Positions 6,396 to 52,170 are shown, counted from the stretch's first letter. The stretch is DNA of 64,000 nucleotides from Escherichia coli (GCF_017348835.2 NZ_CP071375.1), one strand, 5' to 3'. The notes: generated from the letters alone by a model not told the origin. A program made the numbers and translations.

Positions 6396-7661
6396 ATGAG
6401 CAACAATGAATTCCATCAGCGTCGTCTTTCTGCCACCCCGCGCGGGGTTGGCGTGATGTGTAACTTCTTCGCCCAGTCGGCTGAAAACGCCACGCTGAAG
6501 GATGTTGAGGGCAACGAGTACATCGATTTCGCCGCAGGCATTGCGGTGCTGAATACCGGACATCGCCACCCTGATCTGGTCGCGGCGGTAGAGCAGCAAC
6601 TGCAACAGTTTACCCACACCGCGTACCAGATTGTGCCGTATGAAAGCTACGTCACCCTGGCGGAGAAAATCAACGCCCTTGCCCCGGTGAGCGGGCAGGC
6701 TAAAACTGCGTTCTTCACCACCGGCGCGGAAGCGGTGGAAAACGCGGTGAAAATCGCCCGCGCCCATACCGGACGCCCTGGTGTGATTGCGTTTAGCGGC
6801 GGCTTCCACGGTCGTACGTATATGACTATGGCGTTAACTGGAAAGGTCGCGCCGTACAAAATCGGCTTCGGCCCGTTCCCTGGTTCGGTGTATCACGTAC
6901 CTTATCCGTCAGATTTACACGGCATTTCAACACAGGACTCCCTCGACGCCATCGAACGCTTGTTTAAATCAGACATCGAAGCGAAGCAGGTCGCGGCGAT
7001 TATTTTCGAACCGGTGCAGGGCGAGGGCGGTTTCAACGTTGCACCCAAAGAGCTGGTTGCCGCCATTCGCCGCCTGTGCGACGAGCACGGTATTGTGATG
7101 ATTGCTGATGAAGTGCAAAGCGGCTTTGCGCGTACCGGTAAGCTGTTTGCCATGGATCATTACGCCGATAAGCCGGATTTAATGACGATGGCGAAAAGCC
7201 TCGCGGGCGGGATGCCGCTTTCGGGCGTGGTCGGTAACGCGAATATTATGGACGCACCTGCGCCGGGCGGGCTTGGCGGCACCTACGCCGGTAACCCGCT
7301 GGCGGTGGCTGCCGCGCACGCGGTGCTCAACATTATCGACAAAGAATCACTCTGCGAACGCGCGAATCAACTGGGCCAGCGTCTGACAAACACGCTGATT
7401 GATGCCAAAGAAAGCGTTCCGGCCATCGCGGCGGTACGCGGTCTGGGGTCTATGATTGCGGCAGAGTTTAACGATCCGCAAACGGGCGAGCCGTCAGCGG
7501 CGATTGCACAGAAAATCCAGCAACGCGCGCTGGCGCAGGGACTGCTTCTACTGACCTGTGGCGCATACGGCAACGTGATTCGTTTCCTGTATCCGCTGAC
7601 CATCCCGGATGCGCAATTCGATGCGGCAATGAAAATTTTGCAGGATGCGCTGAGAGATTAA
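6396..7661 (+). CDS. puuE: 4-aminobutyrate aminotransferase
   Basis: 421-aa class-III PLP aminotransferase. Confidence 0.95.
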   Translation: MSNNEFHQRRLSATPRGVGVMCNFFAQSAENATLKDVEGNEYIDFAAGIAVLNTGHRHPDLVAAVEQQLQQFTHTAYQIVPYESYVTLAEKINALAPVSGQAKTAFFTTGAEAVENAVKIARAHTGRPGVIAFSGGFHGRTYMTMALTGKVAPYKIGFGPFPGSVYHVPYPSDLHGISTQDSLDAIERLFKSDIEAKQVAAIIFEPVQGEGGFNVAPKELVAAIRRLCDEHGIVMIADEVQSGFARTGKLFAMDHYADKPDLMTMAKSLAGGMPLSGVVGNANIMDAPAPGGLGGTYAGNPLAVAAAHAVLNIIDKESLCERANQLGQRLTNTLIDAKESVPAIAAVRGLGSMIAAEFNDPQTGEPSAAIAQKIQQRALAQGLLLLTCGAYGNVIRFLYPLTIPDAQFDAAMKILQDALRD

Positions 7662-7688
7662 TACGCAGAAGCAGGGGCAACGCAATAA

Positions 7689-7772
7689 TGCCTGATACGC
7701 TGCGCTTATCAGACCTGCAAACGACGTATTGATTATGTATGCCGGATAAGGCGTTCACGCCGCATCCGGCAA
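7689..7772. repeat. REP (repetitive extragenic palindrome) cluster
   Basis: GCCTGATACGCTGCGCTTATCAG and GCCGGATAAGGCG...CGCATCCGGCA units between convergent puuE and pspF. Confidence 0.6.
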
Positions 7773-7791
7773 GTTGTATTGCCCAACTTCG

Positions 7792-8769
7792 CTAAATCTG
7801 GTGCTTTTTCAACAACGCGCGGAACTGATGATAGGTTAACCCCAGTAATTCAGCCGCGCGCTTCTGGTTATATTTCCCTTGTTGCAAACTGAGTTGCAGC
7901 AACTCTTTTTCCTGCTGCATCTGAAACTCACGTAAATCCAGCGGCAGCGTCGGAAGCGAGGTGGTTTCTGAAACGGCGATGGCTTCTTCAGGTGGACGCC
8001 GTTTAAAGGGATCAATAATGATGTCATCAAGCGGATAATCGCTGGTGCCGTGGCGATACACTGAACGTTCCACCACGTTTTTCAATTCACGAATATTTCC
8101 CGGCCAGCGATAATTCAGCAATGTTTCTCTGGCGTGTTCGGTAAAACCCGGGAACAGAGGCAGCTTGATTTCCCGACACATCTGGATGGCAAAGTGTTCT
8201 GCCATTAACATAATGTCGCTTTCGCGTTCGCGTAGTGGCGGCAGTTGTACAACATCAAAAGCCAGCCGGTCGAGAAGGTCAGCGCGAAAAGTACCTTCAT
8301 TGACCATCGCCGGGAGATCGGCATTCGTCGCGCATACCAACCGCACATTCACCTGCAACGGCTGGCTGCCGCCAACGCGCTCCAGTTCACCGTACTCAAT
8401 CACGCGCAATAATTTTTCCTGCACCATCATCGGTGCTGTAGCGAGTTCATCAAGAAATAGCGTACCGCCGTCGGCACGTTCAAATCTCCCTGGATGACGT
8501 TTTTGCGCACCGGTAAACGCCCCCGCTTCGTGACCAAACAGTTCGGAATCCAGCAGATTTTCATTTAACGCCGCGCAGTTAAGGGAAATAAACGGCCCTT
8601 GCCAACGGGAGGAGAGATAATGCAGGCGGCTGGCGATCAGCTCTTTACCGGTGCCGCGTTCGCCGATGATGAGCACCGGTTTGTCCAGCGGTGCGAGATG
8701 CGAAACCTGTTCCAGCACTTCGAGAAAGCTGTTCGCCTCACCAAGTAAATTATCTTTGTATTCTGCCAT
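7792..8769 (-). CDS. pspF: sigma54-dependent activator of the psp operon
   Basis: 325 aa from MAEYKDN; AAA+ sigma54-interaction domain (GERGTGKE, GAFTGA) and C-terminal HTH. Confidence 0.95.
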   Translation of the reverse strand: MAEYKDNLLGEANSFLEVLEQVSHLAPLDKPVLIIGERGTGKELIASRLHYLSSRWQGPFISLNCAALNENLLDSELFGHEAGAFTGAQKRHPGRFERADGGTLFLDELATAPMMVQEKLLRVIEYGELERVGGSQPLQVNVRLVCATNADLPAMVNEGTFRADLLDRLAFDVVQLPPLRERESDIMLMAEHFAIQMCREIKLPLFPGFTEHARETLLNYRWPGNIRELKNVVERSVYRHGTSDYPLDDIIIDPFKRRPPEEAIAVSETTSLPTLPLDLREFQMQQEKELLQLSLQQGKYNQKRAAELLGLTYHQFRALLKKHQI

Positions 8770-10471: not shown

Positions 10472-10545
10472 GGGGAGTTTCGCAAAAATTGTTAAATCTC
10501 AGGCCTATAATGGATGGCAATTTTCATCCATAGAAGGACGCTTAC

Positions 10546-10860
10546 ATGTTTAAAAAAGGCTTACTTGCTCTGGCACTGGTGTTTTCACTGCCCGTTTTCG
10601 CCGCTGAACACTGGATCGATGTTCGTGTTCCAGAGCAGTATCAGCAAGAGCACGTTCAGGGGGCCATCAATATTCCCCTGAAGGAAGTGAAAGAGCGCAT
10701 TGCCACCGCCGTTCCGGATAAAAACGACACCGTGAAAGTGTATTGCAATGCCGGACGCCAGTCCGGGCAGGCAAAAGAGATCCTTAGCGAGATGGGATAT
10801 ACCCACGTTGAGAACGCCGGTGGCCTGAAAGACATCGCAATGCCGAAGGTCAAAGGTTAA
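10546..10860 (+). CDS. pspE: thiosulfate sulfurtransferase (rhodanese), periplasmic
   Basis: 104 aa with signal peptide and rhodanese active-site region CNAGRQS. Confidence 0.95.
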   Translation: MFKKGLLALALVFSLPVFAAEHWIDVRVPEQYQQEHVQGAINIPLKEVKERIATAVPDKNDTVKVYCNAGRQSGQAKEILSEMGYTHVENAGGLKDIAMPKVKG

Positions 10861-10875
10861 AAGAATTCACCATGA

Positions 10876-10899
10876 GCGGCGCTTATGCGCCGTTTTTTT
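10876..10899 (+). terminator. Rho-independent terminator after pspE
   Basis: GCGGCGC-TTAT-GCGCCG hairpin followed by a T7 run. Confidence 0.65.
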
Positions 10900-11070
10900 C
10901 TGTCACACCTTATTTACATCCCCATAGATTATTTGCGTCAGCTCACAAATACGCTTTTTCCCTGGTGAAAAATGATTTCCTGCGTGACTAAAACCCTTGT
11001 GCTCAATTGACAGTTTATTTTCTGCGGAGTAGTCTCTCGTTTCATGGGACCGCTACCACGGAAAGGCAAC

Positions 11071-12750
11071 ATGAAACAGAAAATTACGGATTACCTGGAC
11101 GAAATCTACGGTGGAACATTTACCGCAACTCATTTACAGAAACTTGTAACGCGTCTTGAGAGTGCGAAACGATTAATTACACAGCGACGTAAAAAACACT
11201 GGGATGAAAGTGACGTCGTGTTAATTACCTATGCCGATCAATTTCACAGTAATGATTTAAAACCACTACCCATATTTAATCAGTTCTACCATCAATGGCT
11301 GCAAAGCATTTTTTCACATGTTCATTTATTACCTTTTTACCCATGGTCATCTGATGATGGATTTTCGGTAATTGATTATCATCAGGTCTCCAGTGAAGCG
11401 GGGGAGTGGCAGGATATTCAGCAGCTCGGTGAATGCAGTCATTTAATGTTTGATTTTGTCTGCAACCATATGTCGGCAAAAAGTGAATGGTTTAAAAACT
11501 ATTTGCAACAGCTTCCGGGTTTTGAAGATTTCTTTATTGCGGTTGATCCGAAAACCGATCTCAGTGCCGTCACCCGTCCGCGTGCGTTACCGCTATTAAC
11601 GCCGTTTCAAATGGATGATAATTCCACGCGCCATTTATGGACCACCTTTAGCGACGATCAAATTGACCTCAATTACCGTAGCCCTGAAGTGTTGCTGGCG
11701 ATGGTGGATGTATTGCTGTGCTACCTGGAAAAGGGCGCAGAATATGTCCGTCTGGATGCCGTTGGCTTTATGTGGAAAGAGCCGGGAACAAGCTGCATCC
11801 ATCTGGAAAAAACACATCTGATTATCAAACTGTTACGGTCGATTATTGATGACATCGCGCCAGGTACGGTGATTATTACTGAGACGAATGTTCCGCATAA
11901 AGATAACATTGCTTACTTTGGCGAAGGCGATGACGAAGCGCATATGGTGTACCAGTTCTCGCTGCCGCCGCTGGTGTTACATGCGGTGCAAAAACAGAAC
12001 GTCGAGGCGCTGTGCCAGTGGGCGCAAAGTCTGAGCTTGCCCTCCGGTAAAACGACCTGGTTTAACTTCCTCGCCTCTCACGATGGCATCGGGCTGAACC
12101 CACTGCGGGGCTTGTTACCAGAAAGCGAAATATTAGCGCTGGTCGAGGCATTACAGCAGGAAGGTGCATTAGTAAACTGGAAAAATAATCCCGACGGTAC
12201 GCGCAGTCCCTATGAAATAAATGTCACCTATATGGATGCGTTAAGCCGCCGCGAGAGTAGCGATGAAGAACGTTGCGCCAGGTTTATCCTTGCCCATGCG
12301 ATTTTGTTAAGTTTCCCCGGTGTGCCAGCGATATATATTCAAAGTATTCTGGGCTCGCGTAATGATTACGCAGGTGTCGAAAAACTCGGATATAACCGTG
12401 CGATTAACCGTAAAAAATATCACAGTGAAGAGATAACACGAGAACTGAACGATGAAGCTACATTAAGGCATGCGGTATATCATGAGTTGTCGCGTTTAAT
12501 TACACTTCGTCGCAGCCATAACGAGTTTCATCCGGATAATAATTTTACCATCGATACGGTTAATTCATCCGTAATGCGTATTCAAAGAAGTAACGCTGAT
12601 GGTAATTGTCTGACTGGATTGTTTAATGTCAGTAAAAATATTCAGCATGTAAATATTACTGATCTGCATGGTCGGGATCTGATTAGTGAAGTTGATATAT
12701 TGGGTAATGAAATAACGCTGCGCCCCTGGCAGGTTATGTGGATTAAATAA
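11071..12750 (+). CDS. ycjM: glucosylglycerate phosphorylase (GH13_18 sucrose-phosphorylase-like)
   Basis: 559 aa from MKQKITDYLDEIYGG. Confidence 0.9.
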   Translation: MKQKITDYLDEIYGGTFTATHLQKLVTRLESAKRLITQRRKKHWDESDVVLITYADQFHSNDLKPLPIFNQFYHQWLQSIFSHVHLLPFYPWSSDDGFSVIDYHQVSSEAGEWQDIQQLGECSHLMFDFVCNHMSAKSEWFKNYLQQLPGFEDFFIAVDPKTDLSAVTRPRALPLLTPFQMDDNSTRHLWTTFSDDQIDLNYRSPEVLLAMVDVLLCYLEKGAEYVRLDAVGFMWKEPGTSCIHLEKTHLIIKLLRSIIDDIAPGTVIITETNVPHKDNIAYFGEGDDEAHMVYQFSLPPLVLHAVQKQNVEALCQWAQSLSLPSGKTTWFNFLASHDGIGLNPLRGLLPESEILALVEALQQEGALVNWKNNPDGTRSPYEINVTYMDALSRRESSDEERCARFILAHAILLSFPGVPAIYIQSILGSRNDYAGVEKLGYNRAINRKKYHSEEITRELNDEATLRHAVYHELSRLITLRRSHNEFHPDNNFTIDTVNSSVMRIQRSNADGNCLTGLFNVSKNIQHVNITDLHGRDLISEVDILGNEITLRPWQVMWIK

Positions 12751-12763
12751 AAAGGAACATCTC

Positions 12764-14056
12764 ATGATTAAATCAAAAATCGTGCTGTTATCAGCACTGG
12801 TTTCCTGCGCCCTGATTTCAGGCTGTAAAGAAGAAAATAAAACCCATGTATCCATCGAATTTATGCATTCTTCGGTGGAGCAGGAGCGTCAGGCAGTTAT
12901 CAGTAAATTGATTGCCCGTTTTGAAAAAGAAAACCCGGGCATCACCGTTAAACAAGTGCCAGTGGAAGAAGATGCCTATAACACCAAAGTCATCACCCTT
13001 TCACGTAGCGGCTCGCTGCCGGAAGTGATCGAAACCAGCCATGACTACGCCAAAGTTATGGACAAAGAGCAGCTTATCGATCGTAAAGCGGTTGCCACGG
13101 TCATCAGCAACGTTGGTGAAGGCGCGTTTTACGATGGCGTACTGCGTATTGTGCGCACCGAAGATGGGAGTGCCTGGACCGGTGTTCCTGTCAGCGCCTG
13201 GATTGGCGGCATCTGGTATCGCAAAGATGTGCTGGCAAAAGCCGGGCTGGAGGAGCCGAAAAACTGGCAGCAGCTGCTGGACGTTGCACAGAAACTGAAT
13301 GACCCGGCGAATAAAAAATACGGTATTGCGCTGCCTACAGCAGAAAGCGTGTTGACGGAACAATCCTTCTCCCAGTTTGCGTTATCCAACCAGGCCAACG
13401 TCTTTAACTCTGAAGGCAAAATCACCCTTGATACACCAGAGATGATGCAGGCGCTGACTTATTACCGCGACCTTGCCGCCAACACCATGCCGGGTTCTAA
13501 CGATATCATGGAAGTGAAAGACGCCTTTATGAACGGCACCGCGCCGATGGCGATTTACTCCACCTATATCCTTCCGGCTGTAATTAAAGAAGGCGACCCG
13601 AAAAACGTCGGTTTCGTGGTGCCAACCGAGAAAAACTCTGCGGTCTACGGCATGTTGACCTCGCTGACTATTACCGCCGGGCAAAAGACCGAAGAGACGG
13701 AAGCGGCGGAAAAATTTGTCACCTTTATGGAACAGGCGGACAACATTGCCGACTGGGTGATGATGTCGCCAGGCGCGGCGCTGCCAGTGAACAAAGCGGT
13801 GGTGACTACCGCCACCTGGAAAGACAACGACGTTATTAAGGCGCTGGGTGAACTACCGAATCAGCTAATCGGTGAACTGCCTAATATTCAGGTCTTTGGC
13901 GCAGTAGGGGATAAAAACTTTACCCGCATGGGCGATGTGACGGGTTCTGGTGTGGTGAGCTCCATGGTGCATAACGTCACCGTGGGTAAAGCCGATCTCC
14001 CTGGCACGCTACAAGCGAGCCAGAAAAAGTTGGATGAACTGATCGAACAGCACTAA
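12764..14056 (+). CDS. ycjN: ABC transporter periplasmic sugar-binding protein
   Basis: 430 aa with lipoprotein-type signal peptide. Confidence 0.9.
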   Translation: MIKSKIVLLSALVSCALISGCKEENKTHVSIEFMHSSVEQERQAVISKLIARFEKENPGITVKQVPVEEDAYNTKVITLSRSGSLPEVIETSHDYAKVMDKEQLIDRKAVATVISNVGEGAFYDGVLRIVRTEDGSAWTGVPVSAWIGGIWYRKDVLAKAGLEEPKNWQQLLDVAQKLNDPANKKYGIALPTAESVLTEQSFSQFALSNQANVFNSEGKITLDTPEMMQALTYYRDLAANTMPGSNDIMEVKDAFMNGTAPMAIYSTYILPAVIKEGDPKNVGFVVPTEKNSAVYGMLTSLTITAGQKTEETEAAEKFVTFMEQADNIADWVMMSPGAALPVNKAVVTTATWKDNDVIKALGELPNQLIGELPNIQVFGAVGDKNFTRMGDVTGSGVVSSMVHNVTVGKADLPGTLQASQKKLDELIEQH

Positions 14057-14076
14057 ACCCAGGACAGGAATCCGCA

Positions 14077-14958
14077 ATGAACAGGCTTTTTTCAGGTCGT
14101 TCCGATATGCCGTTTGCGCTGCTGCTTCTCGCGCCCAGCTTATTACTGCTGGGCGGTCTGGTGGCGTGGCCGATGGTGTCGAATATCGAAATCAGTTTTT
14201 TACGTCTGCCGCTCAATCCCAACATCGAGTCAACGTTTGTTGGGGTGAGTAACTATGTGCGCATTCTCTCCGATCCCGGCTTCTGGCACTCGCTGTGGAT
14301 GACGGTCTGGTATACGGCGCTGGTGGTGGCGGGCAGCACCGTGCTCGGGCTGGCCGTGGCGATGTTTTTCAACCGCGAGTTCCGCCTGCGCAAAACCGCG
14401 CGTTCGCTGGTGATCCTCTCCTACGTAACGCCGTCCATTTCGCTGGTGTTTGCCTGGAAATACATGTTCAACAACGGCTACGGCATTGTGAACTACCTCG
14501 GCGTCGATCTTCTGCATCTCTATGAGCAGGCACCGCTGTGGTTCGATAATCCGGGCAGTAGCTTTGTGCTGGTGGTGCTGTTCGCCATCTGGCGCTACTT
14601 CCCGTATGCCTTTATCTCGTTTCTGGCGATTTTGCAGACCATCGACAAATCGCTGTACGAAGCGGCAGAGATGGATGGCGCTAATGCCTGGCAGCGGTTT
14701 CGCATCGTCACGCTGCCCGCAATTATGCCGGTCCTGGCGACGGTGGTGACTCTGCGCACCATCTGGATGTTTTACATGTTCGCTGATGTTTATCTGCTGA
14801 CAACCAAGGTCGATATTCTCGGTGTCTATCTCTACAAAACCGCCTTTGCCTTTAATGACTTAGGGAAAGCGGCGGCGATCTCGGTGGTGCTCTTCATCAT
14901 TATTTTCGCTGTCATTCTGCTGACCAGGAAACGGGTGAACCTCAATGGCAACAAATAA
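14077..14958 (+). CDS. ycjO: ABC transporter permease
   Basis: 293 aa, MalF-type permease. Confidence 0.9.
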   Translation: MNRLFSGRSDMPFALLLLAPSLLLLGGLVAWPMVSNIEISFLRLPLNPNIESTFVGVSNYVRILSDPGFWHSLWMTVWYTALVVAGSTVLGLAVAMFFNREFRLRKTARSLVILSYVTPSISLVFAWKYMFNNGYGIVNYLGVDLLHLYEQAPLWFDNPGSSFVLVVLFAIWRYFPYAFISFLAILQTIDKSLYEAAEMDGANAWQRFRIVTLPAIMPVLATVVTLRTIWMFYMFADVYLLTTKVDILGVYLYKTAFAFNDLGKAAAISVVLFIIIFAVILLTRKRVNLNGNK

Positions 14959-15787
14959 ACGCACACTCAGTCGTATCGGATTTTACTGCGGGCTGGCGCT
15001 GTTTCTCATCATCACGCTGTTTCCGTTTTTTGTGATGCTGATGACCTCGTTCAAGAGCGCAAAAGAGGCGATCTCGCTGCATCCTACGCTGCTGCCGCAA
15101 CAGTGGACGCTGGAGCATTACGTCGACATTTTTAACCCGGTGATATTCCCGTTTGTCGACTATTTCCGTAACAGCATGGTGGTGTCGGTAGTTTCATCCG
15201 TGGTGGCGGTATTTCTCGGCATTCTCGGGGCTTACGCGCTTTCCCGCCTGCGCTTTAAAGGGCGGATGACCATCAACGCCAGCTTTTACACGGTATACAT
15301 GTTCTCCGGCATTTTGCTGGTGGTGCCGCTGTTCAAAATCATCACCGCGCTTGGCATTTACGACACCGAGATGGCGCTGATCATTACCATGGTGACGCAA
15401 ACCCTGCCCACCGCCGTGTTTATGCTGAAAAGCTACTTCGACACCATCCCTGATGAGATCGAAGAAGCGGCGATGATGGATGGCCTCAACCGTCTGCAAA
15501 TTATCTTCCGTATCACCGTGCCCCTGGCGATGTCCGGGCTGATATCGGTGTTCGTCTACTGCTTTATGGTGGCGTGGAACGACTATCTGTTTGCGTCGAT
15601 TTTCCTCTCCAGCGCCAGCAATTTCACCTTACCAGTGGGCCTGAACGCGCTGTTCAGTACGCCTGATTACATCTGGGGACGCATGATGGCGGCCTCGCTG
15701 GTGACCGCATTGCCGGTGGTGATTATGTATGCGCTTTCGGAACGTTTTATTAAGAGTGGTTTGACCGCCGGTGGCGTGAAGGGCTAA
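14945..15787 (+). CDS. ycjP: ABC transporter permease
   Basis: 280 aa, MalG-type permease; start overlaps ycjO. Confidence 0.9.
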   Translation: MATNKRTLSRIGFYCGLALFLIITLFPFFVMLMTSFKSAKEAISLHPTLLPQQWTLEHYVDIFNPVIFPFVDYFRNSMVVSVVSSVVAVFLGILGAYALSRLRFKGRMTINASFYTVYMFSGILLVVPLFKIITALGIYDTEMALIITMVTQTLPTAVFMLKSYFDTIPDEIEEAAMMDGLNRLQIIFRITVPLAMSGLISVFVYCFMVAWNDYLFASIFLSSASNFTLPVGLNALFSTPDYIWGRMMAASLVTALPVVIMYALSERFIKSGLTAGGVKG

Positions 15788-15817
15788 AGCGGCCAGTTTA
15801 TTGACAAGGAGTTTTAA

Positions 15818-16813
15818 ATGAAAAAGTTAGTAGCCACGGCACCGCGCGTAGCGGCGCTGGTTGAGTATGAAGACAGGGCGATTTTAGCCAATGAAGTGAA
15901 GATCCGCGTGCGTTTCGGCGCGCCGAAGCACGGGACGGAAGTGGTCGATTTCCGCGCCGCCAGCCCGTTTATCGATGAAGACTTTAACGGTGAATGGCAG
16001 ATGTTCACCCCGCGCCCGGCAGATGCGCCGCGCGGCATTGAGTTTGGCAAATTCCAGCTTGGCAACATGGTGGTTGGCGACATTATCGAATGCGGCAGCG
16101 CCGTTACCGATTACGCGGTGGGCGACAGCGTATGCGGCTACGGCCCGCTTTCCGAAACGGTCATCATTAACGCGGTGAATAACTACAAGCTGCGCAAAAT
16201 GCCGAAAGGCAGTTCGTGGAAAAACGCCGTCTGCTACGACCCGGCGCAGTTTGCCATGAGCGGCGTGCGCGATGCCAACGTGCGCGTAGGGGATTTTGTG
16301 GTGGTGGTAGGGCTTGGCGCGATTGGTCAAATTGCCATCCAACTGGCGAAACGCGCTGGCGCGTCTGTGGTGATTGGCGTCGATCCTATCGCCCATCGCT
16401 GTGATATTGCCCGTCGCCACGGCGCGGATTTCTGCCTTAACCCCATCGGCACTGACGTAGGGAAAGAGATCAAAACGCTGACCGGCAAGCAGGGTGCCGA
16501 TGTGATTATCGAAACCAGCGGCTACGCCGACGCGCTGCAATCGGCACTGCGCGGCCTGGCTTACGGCGGCACCATCTCCTATGTCGCGTTTGCCAAACCG
16601 TTTGCCGAAGGTTTCAACCTCGGACGCGAAGCGCATTTCAATAACGCCAAAATTGTCTTCTCCCGCGCGTGCAGCGAACCGAACCCGGATTATCCGCGCT
16701 GGAGCCGTAAGCGTATTGAAGAAACCTGCTGGGAACTGCTGATGAACGGTTATCTCAATTGTGAAGATTTAATCGACCCGGTGGTGACCTTTGCTAACAG
16801 CCCGGAAAGCTAA
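15818..16813 (+). CDS. ycjQ: zinc-type dehydrogenase YcjQ (D-guloside 3-dehydrogenase), ending 19 codons early at an in-frame TAA
   Basis: 331-aa ORF; the same frame continues in-frame after the TAA at 16811-16813 for 18 codons (MQYVDQHPEQSIKMGVTF) to a second stop at 16868-16870, giving the 350 aa I recall for the K-12 protein. Confidence 0.85.
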   Translation: MKKLVATAPRVAALVEYEDRAILANEVKIRVRFGAPKHGTEVVDFRAASPFIDEDFNGEWQMFTPRPADAPRGIEFGKFQLGNMVVGDIIECGSAVTDYAVGDSVCGYGPLSETVIINAVNNYKLRKMPKGSSWKNAVCYDPAQFAMSGVRDANVRVGDFVVVVGLGAIGQIAIQLAKRAGASVVIGVDPIAHRCDIARRHGADFCLNPIGTDVGKEIKTLTGKQGADVIIETSGYADALQSALRGLAYGGTISYVAFAKPFAEGFNLGREAHFNNAKIVFSRACSEPNPDYPRWSRKRIEETCWELLMNGYLNCEDLIDPVVTFANSPES

Positions 16814-16888
16814 ATGCAGTACGTTGACCAGCATCCGGAACAGAGCATCAAAATGGGCGTTACGTTTTAATTCAAAGGAATGAAAAAA

Positions 16889-17677
16889 ATGAAAATCGGC
16901 ACACAGAATCAGGCGTTCTTTCCGGAAAACATTCTAGAGAAATTTCGTTATATCAAAGAGATGGGCTTCGATGGTTTTGAAATCGACGGCAAACTGCTGG
17001 TCAACAACATCGAAGAAGTGAAAGCGGCGATCAAAGAAACTGGTTTACCGGTGACCACCGCCTGCGGTGGCTATAACGGCTGGATTGGCGACTTTATCGA
17101 AGAGCGTCGTCTTAATGGCTTAAAGCAGATAGAGCGCATTCTCGAAGCGCTGGCAGAAGTGGGCGGTAAAGGTATCGTCGTTCCGGCAGCGTGGGGCATG
17201 TTTACCTTCCGCTTACCGCCGATGACTTCACCGCGCAGCCTGGACGGCGACCGTAAAATGGTGAGCGATTCCCTGCGCGTACTGGAACAGGTAGCCGCGC
17301 GTACCGGAACCGTGGTGTATCTCGAACCGTTAAACCGTTATCAGGATCACATGATCAACACCCTCGCCGATGCCCGCCGTTACATCGTCGAAAACGATCT
17401 TAAACATGTGCAGATTATCGGCGATTTCTATCACATGAATATCGAAGAAGATAACCTGGCGCAGGCGCTGCATGACAACCGCGACCTGCTCGGTCATGTG
17501 CATATTGCCGATAACCATCGTTATCAGCCGGGCAGCGGCACCCTGGATTTCCACGCGCTGTTTGAACAACTGCGCGCCGATAATTATCAGGGCTATGTGG
17601 TGTATGAAGGGCGCATTCGGGCAGAAGATCCTGCCCAGGCGTACCGTGATTCTTTGGCCTGGTTGCGTACCTGCTAA
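16889..17677 (+). CDS. ycjR: sugar epimerase, xylose isomerase-like TIM barrel (3-dehydro-D-guloside 4-epimerase)
   Basis: 262 aa from MKIGTQNQAFF. Confidence 0.9.
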   Translation: MKIGTQNQAFFPENILEKFRYIKEMGFDGFEIDGKLLVNNIEEVKAAIKETGLPVTTACGGYNGWIGDFIEERRLNGLKQIERILEALAEVGGKGIVVPAAWGMFTFRLPPMTSPRSLDGDRKMVSDSLRVLEQVAARTGTVVYLEPLNRYQDHMINTLADARRYIVENDLKHVQIIGDFYHMNIEEDNLAQALHDNRDLLGHVHIADNHRYQPGSGTLDFHALFEQLRADNYQGYVVYEGRIRAEDPAQAYRDSLAWLRTC

Positions 17678-17686
17678 GAGGTCTTT

Positions 17687-18742
17687 GTGAAAAGTGCAAT
17701 GACAAGCTCTCCGCTGCGGGTCGCGATCATAGGCGCGGGCCAGGTGGCGGATAAAGTTCATGCTTCGTACTACTGCACCCGCAACGATCTGGAACTGGTG
17801 GCTGTCTGTGACAGCCGCCTTTCCCAGGCGCAGGCGCTGGCAGATAAATACGGTAATGCATCCGTGTGGGACGATCCGCAGGCCATGCTGCTGGCGGTGA
17901 AACCTGACGTGGTTAGCGTCTGCTCACCTAACCGTTTTCATTACGAACATACCCTGATGGCACTGGAAGCGGGCTGCCATGTGATGTGCGAAAAACCGCC
18001 CGCCATGACGCCAGAACAGGCGCGGGAAATGTGCGATATCGCGCGCAAACAGGGCAAGGTGCTGGCCTACGACTTTCACCATCGTTTTGCGCTCGATACG
18101 CAACAGCTGCGTGAACAGGTGACCAACGGCGTTTTGGGAGAGATTTACGTTACCACCGCCCGCGCCCTGCGTCGCTGCGGCGTTCCCGGCTGGGGTGTCT
18201 TTACCAATAAAGAACTGCAGGGTGGTGGCCCGCTGATCGACATCGGCATTCATATGCTGGATGCTGCAATGTATGTGCTGGGCTTTCCGGCGGTGAAAAG
18301 CGTGAATGCGCATAGTTTTCAAAAGATCGGCACGCAAAAGAGCTGTGGTCAATTTGGCGAGTGGGATCCGGCAACTTACAGCGTCGAAGATTCGCTGTTT
18401 GGCACCATTGAATTTCATAACGGCGGCATTCTGTGGCTGGAAACGTCATTTGCACTCAACATCCGCGAACAGTCGATTATGAACGTCAGCTTTTGCGGTG
18501 ATAAAGCCGGTGCGACGCTGTTTCCAGCACATATCTACACCGATAACAACGGTGAATTAATGACGCTGATGCAACGGGAAATGGCAGACGACAACCGCCA
18601 TTTGCGCAGCATGGAAGCCTTTATCAATCACGTACAGGGCAAGCCCGTGATGATAGCCGATGCCGAGCAGGGGTACATCATCCAGCAACTGGTGGCGGCG
18701 TTGTATCAATCCGCAGAAACAGGGACGCGTGTGGAATTATGA
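17687..18742 (+). CDS. ycjS: Gfo/Idh/MocA-family NAD-dependent oxidoreductase (D-glucoside 3-dehydrogenase)
   Basis: 351 aa, GTG start, Rossmann motif IIGAGQVA. Confidence 0.9.
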   Translation: MKSAMTSSPLRVAIIGAGQVADKVHASYYCTRNDLELVAVCDSRLSQAQALADKYGNASVWDDPQAMLLAVKPDVVSVCSPNRFHYEHTLMALEAGCHVMCEKPPAMTPEQAREMCDIARKQGKVLAYDFHHRFALDTQQLREQVTNGVLGEIYVTTARALRRCGVPGWGVFTNKELQGGGPLIDIGIHMLDAAMYVLGFPAVKSVNAHSFQKIGTQKSCGQFGEWDPATYSVEDSLFGTIEFHNGGILWLETSFALNIREQSIMNVSFCGDKAGATLFPAHIYTDNNGELMTLMQREMADDNRHLRSMEAFINHVQGKPVMIADAEQGYIIQQLVAALYQSAETGTRVEL

Positions 18743-21006
18743 CCAGGCCAGTAACGTTATCAGAACCCCATTTCAGCCAGCATACCCTGAACAAGTATGC
18801 ATCACTGATGGCGCAGGGGAACGGCTATCTTGGGCTTCGCGCCAGCCATGAAGAAGATTACACGCGCCAGACGCGCGGCATGTATCTGGCGGGGCTGTAT
18901 CATCGGGCGGGTAAAGGTGAAATCAACGAACTGGTGAACCTGCCCGATGTGGTGGGGATGGAGATTGCCATAAATGGTGAGGTTTTCTCATTATCCCGCG
19001 AAGCCTGGCAGCGTGAGCTTGACTTTGCCAGTGGCGAATTACGCCGCAGCGTTGTCTGGCGTACCAGCAACGGCACAGGTTACACCATCGCCAGCCGTCG
19101 CTTTGTTTCGGCAGACCAACTGCCGCTCATTGCGCTGGAAATCACTATTACTCCACTGGACGCCGACGCGTCAGTGCTGATTTCAACAGGCATTGACGCC
19201 ACGCAAACCAATCACGGTCGCCAACATTTCGACGAAACCCAGGTGCGGGTGTTTGGTCAGCATCTGATGCAGGGGATCTACACCACCCAGGATGGACGCA
19301 GTGATGTGGCCATCAGCTGTTGCTGTAAGGTGAGCGGTGATGTGCAGCAATGCTATACCGCCAAAGAGCGCCGTTTGCTGCAACATACCAGCGCGCAACT
19401 TCACGCAGGCGAAACGCTGACGCTGCAAAAACTGGTGTGGATCGACTGGCGGGATGACAGGCAAGCTGCTTTAGACGAGTGGGGCAGTGCGTCGCTTCGC
19501 CAGCTTGAAATGTGTGCGCAGCAGAGTTACGACCAACTTCTTGCAGCATCAACAGAAAACTGGCGTCAGTGGTGGCAGAAACGTCGTATCACGGTAAACG
19601 GCGGCGATGCGCACGATCAGCAAGCGTTAGATTATGCGCTTTATCATCTGCGCATCATGACGCCTGCTCACGACGAGCGCAGCAGTATTGCGGCAAAAGG
19701 CTTAACCGGAGAAGGCTACAAAGGCCACGTTTTCTGGGATACAGAAGTATTTTTGCTACCGTTTCATCTGTTTAGCGATCCGACGGTTGCCCGAAGTTTA
19801 CTGCGTTATCGCTGGCACAACTTGCCAGGCGCGCAGGAGAAAGCGCGACGCAACGGCTGGCAGGGCGCGCTATTTCCGTGGGAGAGCGCACGCAGTGGTG
19901 AAGAAGAGACGCCGGAATTTGCCGCCATTAACATTCGCACCGGGCTGCGGCAAAAAGTGGCCTCGGCGCAGGCTGAACATCATCTGGTCGCCGATATCGC
20001 CTGGGCGGTTATTCAATACTGGCAGACAACGGGGGATGAAAGTTTCATTGCTCATGAAGGCATAGCGCTACTTCTGGAGAGCGCAAAGTTCTGGATTAGC
20101 CGCGCGGTAAGGGTTAACGACCGTCTGGAAATTCATGATGTTATTGGGCCAGACGAATATACCGAACATGTCAATAATAACGCCTTCACCAGCTATATGG
20201 CGTATTACAACGTCCAGCAGGCGCTGAACATCGCTCGTCAATTTGGCTGTAGCGACGTTGCGTTTATCCATCGCGCCGAAATGTTCCTCAAAGAGTTGTG
20301 GCTGCCAGAAACTCAGCCCGACGGCGTTTTGCCGCAGGATGATTCGTTTATGGCTAAGCCGGCGATTAATCTGGCGAAATACAAAGCGGCGGCGGGGAAG
20401 CAAACCATTCTGCTGGATTATTCACGCGCAGAAGTGAACGAGATGCAGATCCTCAAACAAGCTGATGTGGTGATGCTCAATTACATGCTGCCGGAGCAGT
20501 TCTCAGCGGCATCGTGTCTTGCCAATCTGCAATTTTATGAACCGCGCACTATTCACGACTCGTCATTAAGTAAAGCAATCCACGGCATTGTTGCCGCACG
20601 CTGTGGCCTGCTGACCCAAAGTTATCAGTTCTGGCGCGAGGGGACTGAAATCGATCTTGGTGCTGATCCGCATAGTTGTGATGATGGTATCCATGCTGCC
20701 GCAACTGGCGCTATCTGGCTGGGGGCGATTCAGGGTTTTGCCGGGGTGAGCGTGCGTGACGGTGAATTGCATCTAAATCCGGCGTTACCTGAGCAGTGGC
20801 AACAGTTGTCTTTCCCTCTGTTCTGGCAGGGCTGCGAATTACAGGTCACGCTCGACGCGCAGCGTATTGCGATTCGAACTTCTGCGCCCGTTTCACTGCG
20901 TTTGAACGGCCAGCTTATATCCGTGGCTGAAAAATCTGTTTTCTGTTTGGGTGATTATATTTTGCCCTTCAATGGGACCGCTACCACGCATCAGGAGGAT
21001 GAATGA
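18739..21006 (+). CDS. ycjT: kojibiose phosphorylase (GH65)
   Basis: 755 aa. Confidence 0.9.
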
Positions 21007-21662
21007 AACTGCAAGGGGTAATTTTCGATCTGGATGGTGTAATCACCGATACCGCGCATCTGCATTTCCAGGCGTGGCAGCAGATTGCCGCTGAAATTGG
21101 CATCAGCATTGATGCGCAGTTTAACGAATCCCTAAAAGGGATTAGCCGCGATGAGTCTCTGCGGCGCATTCTGCAATACGGGGGCAAAGAGGGCGACTTT
21201 AACTCGCAGGAGCGGGCGCAACTGGCGTATCGCAAAAATCTGCTCTACGTCCACTCACTGCGCGAACTGACGGTTAATGCCGTTCTGCCGGGGATCCGGC
21301 CTTTGCTGGCAGATCTCCGCGCACAGCAGATCCCGGTAGGGCTGGCTTCCGTCTCCCTGAATGCGCCGACGATTTTAGCGGCGCTGGAGCTGCGCGAGTT
21401 TTTCACCTTCTGCGCGGATGCTTCCCAACTTAAAAACTCGAAACCGGATCCGGAAATCTTTCTCGCTGCTTGTGCCGGGCTGGGCGTGCCGCCGCAGGCA
21501 TGTATCGGCATTGAAGATGCGCAGGCGGGCATTGACGCCATTAACGCCAGCGGTATGCGCTCGGTGGGGATCGGCGCGGGCTTAACCGGGGCGCAATTAC
21601 TATTGCCTTCAACGGACTCCCTGACCTGGTCGCGGTTATCGGCCTTCTGGCAAAACGTATAG
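21003..21662 (+). CDS. ycjU: beta-phosphoglucomutase (HAD superfamily)
   Basis: 219 aa with HAD motif I ([10 protein letters not shown]). Confidence 0.9.
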
Positions 21663-23708: not shown

Positions 23709-23721
23709 TAATGGGCTAAAT

Positions 23722-23800
23722 TGCCGGATGCGGCGCGAGTACTTTATCCGATCTATAAATGTAGGCCGGATAAGATGCGCTAGCATCGCATCCGGCATTC
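23722..23800. repeat. REP elements
   Basis: GCCGGATGCGGCG and TGTAGGCCGGATAAGATGCGCTAGCATCGCATCCGGCA units between ompG and ycjW. Confidence 0.6.
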
Positions 23801-23818: not shown

Positions 23819-24817
23819 TTATTTCAGCGTCATATGCGTGGCAACGGTAATATTCTGTGGTGACGGTTTTCCAGAAATTAAGCGGAATAATAACTCGCAG
23901 CTTTGTTGACCTAACTCCTGCGTCGGAACATCGATGCCGCCCGGTGCAGGCGTTAAAATAAATGACAGCGTTTCATTGCTATAACCCACCACCGCTAACT
24001 GCTGCGGAATAGCAATATTTTTCTCTGCTGCCGCACGATAAATGCTCATTAATTTCAGGCTGTCAGTGGCAAACACCGCCTCAGGCAACGGTGACTGGCT
24101 TAATAATTCTCTCGCGGCTTGCAGTGCTGTTTCATGGGTATAACCGCCGTCAACAATCCATTCATCACGCACTGCAATATTATGCGCGGACAGACTTTGC
24201 TTATAACCATTTACCCGATCCACTGAAACATGGACATCAAGCGGTGCATGAAGGCAGGCAATGTTTTTATGTCCATTCTCAATTAATGCATCGGTTAGCG
24301 CAATGCTGTCACCAAAATTATCGGTATCGACAGAATAAACATGGGCATATTGACCTTCAACTTTGCCAATCACCACGACAGGAATATCGTATTTATCAAG
24401 TTGGGCAAAAAATGACTCATCCGCTGGCGAACTTAGCATAATAATGCCTTTAATCATTTTCTGCTTAATTGTGCTTTCACATTTTTGTAAGTCTTCTGCC
24501 AGGTTGTGCGACGTTTGTAATATCACGTCGAAACCTTCTTCTTCCGCTTTGGCGGTGATGGCATGTAGAACTTCTGAGAAAAACGGATTACCCGCCGTAG
24601 TTTTGGTCGAACGGGTAGAAATCACCATAATGGCATCAAAACCCGAAGAGGTCAGCGCGCGGGCCAGCTTGTTTGGCTGATACTGTAATTCTTCAATGGC
24701 CCGTAACACTTTTTCGCGCGCTTCCGGGGAGATATTGGTTTGCTTATTCAGCACGCGTGATACGGTGGATTTTGATACGCCTGCAACCCTGGCAATATCA
24801 TAAATAGTAGGGGACAT
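23819..24817 (-). CDS. ycjW: LacI-family transcriptional regulator
   Basis: 332 aa with N-terminal HTH ([19 protein letters not shown]). Confidence 0.9.
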
Positions 24818-35623: not shown

Positions 35624-37237
35624 ATGAAGCACTCTGTTTCAGTCACGTGTTGTGCGCTGTTGGTCAGCAGCATTTCTCTTTCGTATGCTGCAGAAGTTCC
35701 GAGCGGCACAGTACTGGCAGAGAAGCAGGAGCTGGTGCGCCACATTAAAGATGAGCCTGCGTCGCTGGATCCCGCTAAAGCCGTGGGCCTGCCAGAGATT
35801 CAGGTCATTCGCGATCTGTTTGAAGGACTGGTGAATCAGAACGAGAAAGGGGAGATTGTCCCCGGCGTTGCGACTCAGTGGAAAAGTAATGACAACCGTA
35901 TCTGGACTTTTACCCTGCGCGATAACGCAAAATGGGCGGATGGCACACCGGTAACGGCGCAAGATTTTGTCTACAGCTGGCAGCGTCTGGTGGACCCGAA
36001 AACGCTATCGCCATTTGCATGGTTTGCCGCGCTGGCGGGAATCAACAACGCACAGGCGATTATTGATGGTAAAGCTACGCCTGACCAGCTTGGCGTCACC
36101 GCAGTTGATGCCCATACTTTGAAAATTCAGCTTGATAAACCGTTGCCGTGGTTTGTGAATTTAACCGCTAACTTTGCCTTCTTCCCGGTGCAAAAAGCCA
36201 ACGTAGAAAGCGGTAAAGAGTGGACGAAACCCGGAAATCTGATCGGCAATGGCGCTTATGTTCTTAAAGAGCGCGTAGTCAATGAAAAACTGGTCGTGGT
36301 ACCGAATACCCATTATTGGGATAACGCCAAAACGGTACTGCAAAAAGTGACCTTCCTGCCAATTAATCAGGAATCCGCAGCCACTAAGCGTTACCTCGCG
36401 GGGGATATTGATATCACCGAATCCTTCCCGAAAAATATGTATCAGAAGCTGTTGAAGGATATTCCGGGGCAGGTTTATACGCCGCCGCAGCTCGGGACCT
36501 ATTATTATGCGTTTAACACGCAAAAAGGGCCGACGGCAGATCAGCGCGTTCGTCTGGCATTAAGTATGACGATAGATCGCCGCCTGATGACCGAAAAAGT
36601 ATTAGGGACGGGCGAAAAGCCAGCGTGGCATTTTACACCAGATGTTACCGCCGGATTTACGCCGGAACCTTCGCCGTTTGAACAAATGAGTCAGGAAGAA
36701 CTGAATGCGCAGGCAAAAACTTTGTTGAGCGCAGCTGGTTATGGTCCGCAAAAACCGCTGAAGCTGACGCTTTTGTATAACACTTCAGAAAACCATCAAA
36801 AAATTGCGATTGCTGTAGCATCGATGTGGAAAAAGAACCTTGGCGTAGATGTTAAATTGCAAAATCAGGAATGGAAAACCTATATCGATAGCCGTAACAC
36901 CGGCAATTTTGATGTTATCCGCGCCTCATGGGTGGGGGATTATAATGAACCCTCCACGTTCCTGACATTATTAACGTCAACGCATTCAGGAAATATTTCA
37001 CGCTTTAACAATCCGGCATACGACAAAGTTCTGGCCCAGGCATCGACGGAAAATACCGTTAAAGCGCGTAATGCCGATTACAACGCGGCAGAAAAAATCC
37101 TCATGGAGCAAGCACCGATTGCACCAATTTATCAATATACCAATGGACGATTAATCAAACCGTGGCTGAAAGGTTATCCCATTAATAACCCTGAAGATGT
37201 GGCGTACAGTCGGACTATGTATATTGTGAAGCATTGA
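35624..37237 (+). CDS. mppA: murein tripeptide periplasmic binding protein
   Basis: 537 aa from MKHSVSVTCCALL with signal peptide. Confidence 0.95.
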   Translation: MKHSVSVTCCALLVSSISLSYAAEVPSGTVLAEKQELVRHIKDEPASLDPAKAVGLPEIQVIRDLFEGLVNQNEKGEIVPGVATQWKSNDNRIWTFTLRDNAKWADGTPVTAQDFVYSWQRLVDPKTLSPFAWFAALAGINNAQAIIDGKATPDQLGVTAVDAHTLKIQLDKPLPWFVNLTANFAFFPVQKANVESGKEWTKPGNLIGNGAYVLKERVVNEKLVVVPNTHYWDNAKTVLQKVTFLPINQESAATKRYLAGDIDITESFPKNMYQKLLKDIPGQVYTPPQLGTYYYAFNTQKGPTADQRVRLALSMTIDRRLMTEKVLGTGEKPAWHFTPDVTAGFTPEPSPFEQMSQEELNAQAKTLLSAAGYGPQKPLKLTLLYNTSENHQKIAIAVASMWKKNLGVDVKLQNQEWKTYIDSRNTGNFDVIRASWVGDYNEPSTFLTLLTSTHSGNISRFNNPAYDKVLAQASTENTVKARNADYNAAEKILMEQAPIAPIYQYTNGRLIKPWLKGYPINNPEDVAYSRTMYIVKH

Positions 37238-38869: not shown

Positions 38870-39820
38870 TTAATCGTCTTCTTCGTCATCCAGTTCAACG
38901 GGTGTCTGATACTGGTCAGGTTTAATGACCAACAGATCGCAGCGAAGATGATCAATCACCTGTTCCGCCGTGTTGCCGAGGAATGCTGCTGAAATACCGG
39001 TGCGTCCTACCGTGCCCAGAACCACAATCCCCGCCTGTAAGTGCTCCGCCAAATCAGGAATCACCTCTTCTGGCAGACCTTTTTCTACGTGCGTCATGTT
39101 TTCATTAATGCCGAATTTCTGCCGCAGAGCTTTCATTGCCAGCAAATGTTGCCCACGAATGGCATCGTTATAAACGCTCGGATCAAATTCCGGCAGTTCA
39201 ATCGCGATATTAATTGGCGTTACTGGGTAAGCGCCAACCAGATGAACTTCGGTATGGTTGACTTGTTCTGCCAGTTCGATCGTCTCTTTGACCAGTTTTT
39301 CATTGAGTGCATTATGATACGGCTCTTCACTGGCGAGATTCACCGCCACCAGCGCCTTACCTCCTTCCGGCCACGGCTGGTCTTTCACCATCCACACCGG
39401 GCTTGGGCATTTGCGTAACAGATGCCAGTCCGTTGGCGTAAAAATCACCGCTTCCAGACGGTCATGTTGGTGCGCCATTTTTAGCACCAAATCGTGCCCG
39501 CCGCTGATCACTTCCTGAATGATGGCTTCGAAAGGACGGTTATGCCAGACCACTTTAATTTCAATGGGAACGCCAGCATTGAGATAATATTTTGCTTGCT
39601 CGTGGATCCAGGCTGTACGCTGGCTGATGACGCCCTGACGCATAGCGGTACGTTCGTCCGGGGAGAGCAGGGTGGTCATTTCGTATGAGAAGTCATAGAT
39701 CGGCAAAAAGGCTTTAATTTTGCCACCAATCCGTTGATGTAAATAAACAGCTCGCCGCAATGCTGGTTGGTCGTCCTGGTTAGGATCGATAACAACGAGC
39801 ATGTTCTGATACATAGCCAT
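38870..39820 (-). CDS. uspE: universal stress protein E (tandem Usp domains)
   Basis: 316 aa from [15 protein letters not shown]. Confidence 0.95.
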
Positions 39821-52095: not shown

Positions 52096-52170
52096 TGCCG
52101 GGTGCAAGAGTAAACATCTGATTCGGGATTGCCGGATGCGACGCTGGCCGCGTCTTATCCGGCCTCCATA
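52096..52170. repeat. REP elements
   Basis: GCCGGATGCGACGCTGGCCGCGTCTTATCCGGCC-type palindromic units between dbpA and ttcA. Confidence 0.6.

Follow-up and report, generated by a model that had tools for sequence, protein, structure and literature searches.

The 17-bp direct repeat around ycjM-ycjT in Escherichia coli as a pair of operators for the LacI-family repressor YcjW

Both copies of a direct repeat that brackets the ycjM-ycjT genes in a 64,000-nt stretch of Escherichia coli DNA (hereafter, the window) are, with a probability of roughly 0.95, operators of the repressor YcjW, which we term O1 and O2, the recognised element in each being the 14-bp sequence TGGGACCGCTACCA. These operators are already known, as they correspond in locus and in 14-bp sequence to the published YcjW operators of E. 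coli K-12. Since the repeat is a published YcjW-binding site, it belongs among ordinary regulatory elements that have been described before, and is no substrate for recombination. The suggestion in an earlier, sequence-only reading of this DNA that it might be a shared regulatory element is thus borne out both by the literature on YcjW binding and by the phylogenetic footprint, and we met no evidence contradicting the operator assignment.

The 17-mer ATGGGACCGCTACCACG has two exact copies in the window, 11044-11060 and 20972-20988; both are on the + strand, their starts are 9,928 bp apart, and a scan of the 64 kb recovered no third copy at up to two mismatches. The exact repeat claimed by the sequence-only reading is therefore real, and the positions of the reading frames confirm its placement just 5' of the ycjM start and in the last codons of ycjT before ycjU. 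The first copy ends 10 nt 5' of the ATG (11071) of ycjM (11071-12750, + strand), which codes for a glucosylglycerate phosphorylase, is the first gene of the repressed operon (from the ORF list and from the annotation of E. coli records in RefSeq that are identical or nearly so) and has the Shine-Dalgarno sequence GGAAAGG at 11060-11066. The second copy lies within codons 745-750 of the kojibiose phosphorylase gene ycjT (18739-21006, + strand; ORF list and annotation), the 3' end of which contains O2. The last base of this copy is 14 nt 5' of the ATG (21003) of ycjU/pgmB (21003-21662, + strand; ORF list and annotation), a beta-phosphoglucomutase gene and the first gene 3' of O2. The ycjU ATG overlaps the ycjT stop codon (ATGA), and its Shine-Dalgarno sequence, AGGAGG, is at 20993-20998.

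The length of the repeat is by itself weak evidence, because an iid model with the composition of the window predicts 0.12 exact direct 17-mer pairs in 64 kb and because the same window holds an unrelated exact 17-bp inverted pair (36279/39290, in mppA and uspE). The non-randomness of the repeat comes instead from position and shape: both copies lie just 5' of start codons in one operon, and the core reads as a palindrome around a central CG. Hence, the earlier statement that such a 17-mer should not recur by chance was overstated as regards length, but stands as regards non-randomness. The functional core is the 14-bp TGGGACCGCTACCA, an imperfect palindrome with 10 of 14 positions symmetric about the central CG (TGGGAC-CG-CTACCA), and it is found as an exact match at 11045-11058 (O1, + strand), in the 5' leader of ycjM and at the centre of a published EMSA probe, and at 20973-20986 (O2, + strand), in the last ycjT codons and under ChIP-seq and ChIP-exo peaks. 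The O1 core ends 12 nt 5' of the ycjM ATG and the O2 core 16 nt 5' of the ycjU ATG. O2 is read in ycjT as xxT GGG ACC GCT ACC Axx, which specifies G746-T-A-T749. A degenerate pattern, TGGNANCGNTNCCA, matches only these two sites in 64 kb, against 0.06 matches expected. The 17-bp identity consists of this core and three flanking bases that match by happenstance in the window strain: 17 bp are common to both sites in that strain, as opposed to 15 bp in K-12, where site 2 reads ...CCAAA. A significance for 17 bp as such was rejected, as the three extra bases vary at both sites. Strain PE164 matches the window at 100% over both 401-bp stretches searched.

The YcjW motif was reportedly predicted in RegPrecise and first tested by Zuo and Stormo in 2014. 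The repressor is encoded by ycjW (23819-24817, - strand; 332 aa; annotated under this name in K-12), 2.8 kb downstream and syntenic in all genera examined, and combines a Pfam LacI HTH domain (E = 1.8e-20) with Peripla_BP_1/3/4 domains. Luhachack et al. (2019, PMC6599011) found their two strongest YcjW ChIP-seq regions 5' of ycjM and ‘between ycjT and ycjU’; the latter site actually lies inside the ycjT reading frame. In the same study YcjW shifted the ycjM EMSA probe LL58 (GAGTAGTCTCTCGTTTCATGGGACCGCTACCACGGAAAGGCAACatgAAAC), which corresponds to window positions 11027-11076 with the 17-mer at its centre, and kojibiose released YcjW. Two further probes, for narP and cyaA, contain TGGTAGCGTTACCA and TGGTAACGTTCCCA (Luhachack et al., 2019, PMC6599011), and together the three probes define the motif TGG[GT]A[ACG]CG[CT]T[AC]CCA. 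Deletion of ycjW derepressed ycjM, ycjT, ycjU and ompG 20- to 60-fold (Luhachack et al., 2019, PMC6599011). In an independent ChIP-exo study, the top YcjW signals were assigned to ycjU (1665) and ycjM (840) (Gao et al., 2021, PMC8464067). After coordinate conversion, site #20, with the signal/noise of 1665, covers O2. The entry for ycjM converts to a discrepant position some 108 nt 3' of O1, which has no YcjW-like site beneath it at up to three mismatches. The literature has thus established binding of the O1 probe in vitro, occupancy of both sites in vivo and derepression of the operon in a ycjW deletion, with direct binding and effector release coming from EMSA on the O1 sequence and occupancy from ChIP at both sites.

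The sites also agree with what is typical of this family, in which operators are even-length palindromes of 14-22 bp with a central CG pair (Ravcheev et al., 2014). Both are even palindromes with a central CG, the cognate repressor gene is nearby, each is at a promoter or shortly 5' of a start codon, and both leave a phylogenetic footprint. At up to three mismatches, the window contains four other YcjW-like matches, a chance-level number, none of which is near ycjW itself.

The footprint is sharply confined to the core. A scan of genome contigs with YcjT recovered five close loci, and remoter genera were reached through protein searches and contig look-ups. The 14-bp core is unchanged at both positions in all E. 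coli lineages compared. Nine further enterobacterial genera also have it exactly at each site, and a tenth has it with one mismatch per site; the taxa with exact cores include Escherichia, Pseudocitrobacter, Citrobacter freundii, C. koseri, Salmonella, Klebsiella, Yokenella, Enterobacter cloacae and Leclercia, with YcjT identity at 62-75% in most cases. At O1, all 21 loci carrying the region (11 genera) have the core exactly or with one mismatch amid diverged flanks, and column conservation over 10 genera averages 0.99 within the core and 0.54-0.69 in the flanks. The four core positions that break the palindrome vary no more than the other ten. Sampled E. coli variants fall in the flanks only and never in the core. 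At site 2 the bases after the core read CG, CA, AA or TA; at site 1 the C after the core is deleted in O157:H7 and changed to T in MS20657, and five genera have G...T. The flanking A and CG of the 17-mer are thus not conserved, K-12 and O157:H7 included. Variability at one site in close relatives, which the sequence-only reading had set against a function, therefore does hold for the repeat as a 17-mer (site 2 in K-12, site 1 in O157:H7), but the 14-bp core is kept. Within ycjT, 150 alignment columns have a fourfold-degenerate codon family common to 10 genera, and the third base is invariant in just seven of them; four of these seven are in adjacent codons inside O2, as opposed to a 2% background in the rest of the gene. 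Both cores are under purifying selection at the level of DNA, and the conservation pattern points to selection on the sequence itself and not on its repetition.

At O1 the site is coupled to a predicted sigma-70 promoter, PycjM (11007-11035, + strand), which was read from the sequence and is backed by a position-weight-matrix (PWM) scan and by conservation. It combines a -35 element, TTGACA (11007-11012), with a 17-nt spacer and a -10 element, TAGTCT (11030-11035). The latter matches the consensus at only 3/6 positions, which is why a strict consensus scan missed it. In the PWM scan, PycjM ranked at the 100th percentile against the operon background in 11 of 11 loci scored; both of its hexamers are conserved across 10 genera, and the -10 ends 8-9 nt 5' of the core across the 11 loci (about 9 nt in the window). 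Transcription would start near 11042, centring O1 at about +10. As this position is like that of lacO1, YcjW bound at O1, some 9 nt 3' of the -10, should block initiation or promoter escape.

The lac operators O1 and O2 of LacI offer a close comparison: in both cases a repressor of the same family has a primary operator near +10/+11 and a second copy in a downstream coding region, the operators are palindromes with a symmetry centre, and a sugar inducer releases the repressor. However, the lac operators vary in sequence from one to the next, unlike the two identical YcjW cores, and lacO2 lies 401 bp from O1 and is engaged by tetramer-mediated looping. Looping is unlikely for the YcjW sites because of their 9,928-bp spacing and because YcjW, the ligand-binding domain of which extends to about residue 322 of 332, is without the C-terminal tetramerisation extension and has been modelled by homology as a dimer (Gao et al., 2021, PMC8464067). 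Accordingly, the sites do not fit a looping pair of the lac O1-O2 type, and we infer that YcjW is dimeric and non-looping. Intragenic operators that act as roadblocks are known in the family, for example that of PurR in purB and the cre sites of CcpA inside reading frames. Like these, O2 would place a dimeric LacI-family repressor within transcribed coding sequence at a long distance from the promoter; in that type the repressor can act only on elongating RNA polymerase, and for O2 a roadblock is our proposal. Unlike them, O2 lies 17-30 nt 5' of the ycjU start codon, and in this it resembles an ordinary upstream site for ycjU.

How O2 acts is a question apart from what it is, and the role of the second site is not addressed in the published YcjW papers. 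The likeliest reading is that it serves as a transcriptional roadblock, for which we put the chance at about even. An internal YcjW-controlled promoter that has O2 as its operator and drives ycjU-ycjV-ompG independently of PycjM, mirroring the arrangement at O1, appears unlikely, though we keep it as a minority view. A weak -10-like hexamer, TATTTT or similar, precedes O2 by 9-10 nt in Escherichia, C. koseri, Klebsiella and Enterobacter sp. SA187. In Escherichia it is TATTTT, for which the window strain has TATATT shifted upstream by one base. In the first three of these taxa the hexamer ends 9 nt before the core, as it does at O1; hence, a weak lineage-specific promoter is possible. However, the -35 at O2 in E. 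coli is no better than 1-2/6, a strict consensus scan found nothing, and the PWM scan of 11 loci detected no conserved sigma-70 promoter before O2. The best score there is unremarkable, ranging with genus from the 10th to the 94th percentile of the coding background, and it is poor in Salmonella, E. cloacae and Leclercia despite their exact cores; a limited literature search, too, found no mention of such a promoter. This lack of a conserved promoter favours the roadblock. The published expression data show the derepression fold climbing again from ycjT to ycjU, with 39-58 fold for ycjU versus 20-26 fold for ycjT (qRT-PCR, three replicates; Luhachack et al., 2019, PMC6599011), but this roughly 2-fold step fits a roadblock and an internal promoter alike.

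Taken together, YcjW, the LacI/GalR-family protein that represses the sugar-utilisation operon ycjMNOPQRSTUV-ompG, would do so through two gates. Beyond the block at O1, the second gate, O2, 9.9 kb downstream and ahead of the ycjU ribosome-binding site, would act as a roadblock to elongation, stopping transcripts that have escaped O1 or have entered by read-through from the psp operon, thereby tightening repression of ycjU-ycjV-ompG. An inducer related to kojibiose frees the DNA of YcjW. A dual use of O2 follows the same lines, and we hold it tentatively, at slightly less than even odds: as a repressor site in the last ycjT codons it would fix the peptide G-T-A-T together with its synonymous bases, and as a roadblock it would gate ycjU-ycjV-ompG. 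With similar reserve, we suggest that O2 in this dual-use reading may have been fixed since before these enterobacterial genera diverged, with its gating separate from the upstream sugar-transport and oxidoreductase genes. A stranger variant would have the invariant non-palindromic positions reflect an oriented or RNA-level function besides YcjW binding.

A purely RNA-level role, in which the 14-mer is a processing site or a small-RNA or protein target controlling translation of ycjM and ycjU, is very improbable. Both copies are indeed transcribed, 12-16 nt 5' of a start codon; in all genera the asymmetric core points the same way at the two sites and lies at comparable distances from the start codon that follows; and the invariance of its non-palindromic positions would also fit. 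However, the common orientation could be simple inheritance, and the experimentally established binding of DNA by YcjW is a sufficient explanation. Furthermore, the core alone folds to just -2.5 kcal/mol, neither site has an Rfam match at E <= 1 (a permissive threshold gave one spurious snoRNA match only, elsewhere in the sequence searched), and an alignment fold of 10 genera contains no compensatory pairs or conserved structure. The folding z-score is -2.2 at site 1, which has a stem specific to E. coli, and +0.5 at site 2. The RNA-processing element entertained in the sequence-only reading thus finds no counterpart in a stable or conserved RNA structure.

Its other proposal, recombination between the repeats, here taken as homologous or illegitimate, that would delete or duplicate the 9.9-kb ycjM-ycjT block, fares still worse. 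Rare deletions between short direct repeats can occur without RecA, and these repeats are direct in orientation and identical over 17 bp in the window strain. However, when synthetic deletion and duplication junctions of 617 nt each were compared with 5,426 complete E. coli genomes (a match being at least 80% covered), the deletion junction was found in 0/5,426 and the tandem-duplication junction likewise in 0/5,426. Strain ET846, which is without the operon, lost it through an IS1-mediated deletion from pspE into ycjW with endpoints other than the repeats, and chimeric Ycj proteins in the databases also point to breakpoints elsewhere. As a feature shaping natural populations, recombination between the repeats is effectively refuted. 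That the repeat is a functionless coincidence, for which one could invoke the chance expectation and the inverted pair noted above, can be dismissed in view of the published YcjW-binding data, the conservation of both cores in 11 genera whose flanking sequences have diverged, and the frozen synonymous sites.

Finally, the proper label for the repeat is YcjW operators O1 and O2, with no flag for a suspected recombination hotspot. The core, which has the same sequence at its two sites in almost every one of 11 genera, is a very clean phylogenetic footprint, and in overriding synonymous codon choice in ycjT it makes a teaching example of a regulatory code that overlaps a protein code. A limited literature search gave no match for the ompG ‘cog’ deletion. 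The role of O2 bears on how ompG and the beta-phosphoglucomutase gene stay silent in laboratory E. coli.

The 17-mer ATGGGACCGCTACCACG occurs exactly at both 11044-11060 and 20972-20988 on the + strand, with no third copy in the 64-kb window at up to two mismatches. Site 1, in the gap between pspE and ycjM, stops 10 nt short of the ycjM start codon (11071). Site 2 occupies the final codons of ycjT and stops 14 nt short of the ycjU ATG (21003); this ATG and the ycjT stop codon share an ATGA overlap. The claim that such a sequence would not recur by chance was too strong: about 0.12 exact direct pairs are expected per 64-kb window under an iid model, and the window holds one other exact 17-mer pair, unrelated and inverted (TCAATGAAAAACTGGTC / GACCAGTTTTTCATTGA; 36279-36295 and 39290-39306, on the sense strand of mppA (+) and uspE (-)), which is probably fortuitous. 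Hence, it is the context of the ycjM-ycjT repeat, rather than its length, that makes it credible.

Within the 17-mer is a 14-bp core, TGGGACCGCTACCA, present at 11045-11058 (O1) and 20973-20986 (O2). It is an imperfect palindrome (TGGnAnCGnTnCCA) with CG at its center; even-length palindromes centered on CG typify the operators of the LacI family (Ravcheev et al., 2014). A degenerate version of the core pattern matches only these two sites in the window, against 0.06 matches expected, and a LacI-family gene, ycjW, lies downstream (23819-24817, - strand). Every test of membership among the LacI-family operators that could be run here came out in favor. The pair is indeed not merely similar to a known system but is that system itself, the already known YcjW operators of E. 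coli, which had been predicted from comparative genomics, assayed in vitro and located by two in vivo mapping studies. ChIP-seq with FLAG-tagged YcjW, in which enrichment was highest upstream of ycjM and between ycjT and ycjU, defined the 14-bp motif; the ycjM EMSA probe (LL58 in Table S1) corresponds to 11027-11076 with the 17-mer at its middle, and it was shifted by YcjW and released by kojibiose, while probes for narP and cyaA contain TGGTAGCGTTACCA and TGGTAACGTTCCCA, respectively (Luhachack et al., 2019; PMC6599011). In ChIP-exo, the top two YcjW sites were assigned to ycjU (signal/noise 1665) and ycjM (840) (Gao et al., 2021; PMC8464067). Published ChIP data imply no strong YcjW sites in the genome besides these two. 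With the NC_000913.2 positions of the ChIP-exo study converted to NC_000913.3, the ycjU peak falls precisely on site 2. By the same conversion, the ycjM site (site #18; NC_000913.2 1368320-1368355) maps inside ycjM at approximately 11152-11187, about 108 nt downstream of O1, and no YcjW-like motif was seen under this coordinate. Of the roles that the sequence-only reading had entertained, that of a shared regulatory element is borne out for both copies by the published ChIP-seq and ChIP-exo and by the EMSA probe at O1, together with the conserved cores.

The window strain is an E. coli other than K-12 (100% identity to PE164 over the two 401-bp stretches searched; 97.5-99% to K-12 derivatives). 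Both sites retain the unaltered core in six E. coli lineages (PE164/window, K-12, P19_598, M25631H, BH100 and EC67), in an O157:H7 strain that was also checked, and in Escherichia sp. E1V33, E. whittamii and Pseudocitrobacter. The same holds for Citrobacter freundii, C. koseri, Salmonella enterica, Klebsiella sp., Yokenella, Enterobacter cloacae and Leclercia, taxa whose YcjT shares only 62-73% identity with that of the window. Escherichia sp. MOD1-EC7003 and Enterobacter sp. SA187 show one mismatch per site, and a Citrobacter MAG contig covering only the site 2 region has the exact core there. This retention across strains and genera is reflected in a mean column conservation over ten genera of 0.99 for the core as against 0.54-0.69 for flanks of 40-60 nt on each side; the four non-palindromic core positions (4, 6, 9 and 11) are invariant as well. 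Site 2 is read in one and the same frame throughout (xxT GGG ACC GCT ACC Axx); the YcjT tail is unalignable apart from the resulting G-T-A-T peptide, which is invariant along with its third-codon bases. Among 150 ycjT alignment columns with the same fourfold-degenerate codon family in all ten genera, the third base is invariant in just seven, four of which are the four adjacent O2 codons. Judged from these alignments, the codon pattern is one of selection on DNA, not protein.

Conversely, the three bases of the 17-mer beyond the core are not conserved. Site 2 reads ...CCAAA in K-12, leaving 15 bp common to both sites, and the core is followed there by CA or TA in other Escherichia. At site 1, the C after the core is T in strain MS20657 and deleted in O157:H7, and in five genera the core is flanked by G...T in place of A...C. 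Of 5,029 E. coli genomes, 3,680 match a 34-mer spanning site 1 exactly, and 1,743 of 4,977 do so for one spanning site 2; all changes in the fetched site 1 variants lie outside the core, and the site 2 core is intact in every E. coli locus read. Thus, the repeat does vary in close relatives, a finding that was to count against it, when taken as the 17-mer, but not when taken as the 14-bp core. About 350 genomes have in common a form of the O1 34-mer with two differences. In O157:H7 strain 3-5-1 (10511-13520 of its locus), which has both cores intact and lacks the C directly after O1, the annotation gives ycjM as frameshifted and ycjN as carrying an internal stop. The flanks of site 1 (11044/11059 in the window; comparison loci L004 and L011-L018) co-vary across genera, which may be phylogenetic inertia: A...C is seen in Escherichia, C. 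freundii, C. koseri, Yokenella and SA187, and G...T in Pseudocitrobacter, Salmonella, Klebsiella, E. cloacae and Leclercia. The G...T form loses an upstream in-frame ATG and creates CCATGG. That ATG forms the first bases of the 17-mer and shares the ycjM frame, with no stop codon ahead of the annotated ATG at 11071 (11044-11073), and gene callers take it as the start in Citrobacter, Klebsiella and Yokenella (568-569 aa versus 559 aa in RefSeq E. coli); sequence alone thus leaves the true ycjM start ambiguous.

O1 is a classical promoter-proximal operator, its binding and repression being known from the literature and the exact transcription start inferred. The predicted sigma-70 promoter PycjM (-35 TTGACA at 11007-11012, 17-nt spacer, -10 TAGTCT at 11030-11035) lies upstream of site 1, and the core begins 9 nt past the -10 hexamer; this puts its center at about +10 relative to the inferred start (near 11042), comparable to lacO1. 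A strict consensus scanner missed PycjM because its -10 matches at only 3 of 6 positions; in a PWM scan it reached the 100th percentile relative to operon background in 11 of 11 loci scored.

At O2, the most economical reading is that YcjW would act as an elongation roadblock, a second layer of repression on ycjU-ycjV-ompG. Deletion of ycjW raises the mRNA of ycjM, ycjT, ycjU and ompG 20- to 60-fold (Luhachack et al., 2019; PMC6599011); the roadblock is consistent with the derepression of ycjU (39-58 fold) being roughly 2-fold above that of ycjT (20-26 fold) over three replicates. This difference would also fit O2 being the operator of an internal sigma-70 promoter, and a weak -10-like TATTTT does occur 9 nt upstream of O2 in Escherichia, C. 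koseri and Klebsiella. However, the best promoter score at O2 ranges from the 10th to the 94th percentile by genus in the PWM scan, with low values in Salmonella, E. cloacae and Leclercia despite the exact core; a conserved internal promoter is accordingly not supported. Looping between O1 and O2 is unlikely given their spacing of 9,928 bp and a YcjW of 332 aa modeled as a dimer, without a C-terminal extension past the ligand-binding domain; the sites do not group with looping operator pairs.

The proposal that the repeats are recombination substrates is rejected: synthetic deletion and tandem-duplication junctions found no match in 5,426 complete E. coli genomes, none of which has ycjM-ycjT deleted at the repeats. 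The pspE-ycjM junction region is absent from about 390 of the 5,426; ET846, the sole such genome examined, has an IS1-mediated deletion from pspE into ycjW, with an IS1 element (7011-8347 of its locus) taking the place of the entire ycjM-ompG operon and of the 3' portion of ycjW. Several E. coli database proteins (P0002, P0005, P0007, P0006, P0010, P0017, P0086, P0099) have YcjT fused to YcjU (951 aa) or to YcjN, YcjO/P, YcjR or YcjS fragments, a sign of frameshifts at the ATGA overlap and of deletions within the operon whose breakpoints are not the repeats. The E. cloacae locus is without ycjQ and ycjR. In C. freundii (L011, 17480-17797) and Klebsiella sp. (L014, 16218-16535), the gene for a 105-aa PspE-like rhodanese is flanked by ycjW and ycjX, whereas its place in E. 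coli is between pspD and ycjM; hence, the sulfurtransferase associated with YcjW-dependent H2S production still adjoins the ycj cluster, at its opposite end. Inverted-repeat pairs of the GCCGGATGCGGCG type at 7743-7775, 23718-23800 and 52127-52169, in intergenic gaps that include ompG-ycjW, look like REP/BIME elements.

An RNA-processing or otherwise structured RNA element fares no better, with no Rfam match at either site, a fold of -2.5 kcal/mol for the 17-mer and a z-score of +0.5 for the site 2 region. An 8-bp inverted repeat (GTTTCATG / CATGAAAC; 11039-11046 and 11070-11077) encloses O1, the Shine-Dalgarno and the ycjM AUG; as an RNA stem (GUUUCAUG/CAUGAAAC; -11 kcal/mol, z = -2.2) it would, by this folding model, sequester the ycjM start codon. 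The stem is specific to E. coli and not conserved outside Escherichia, and the ten-genus alignment has neither compensatory pairs nor covariation.

What remains of interest is the role of the intragenic O2 and the reason for its frozen, asymmetric positions, a small and tractable problem rather than a discovery.
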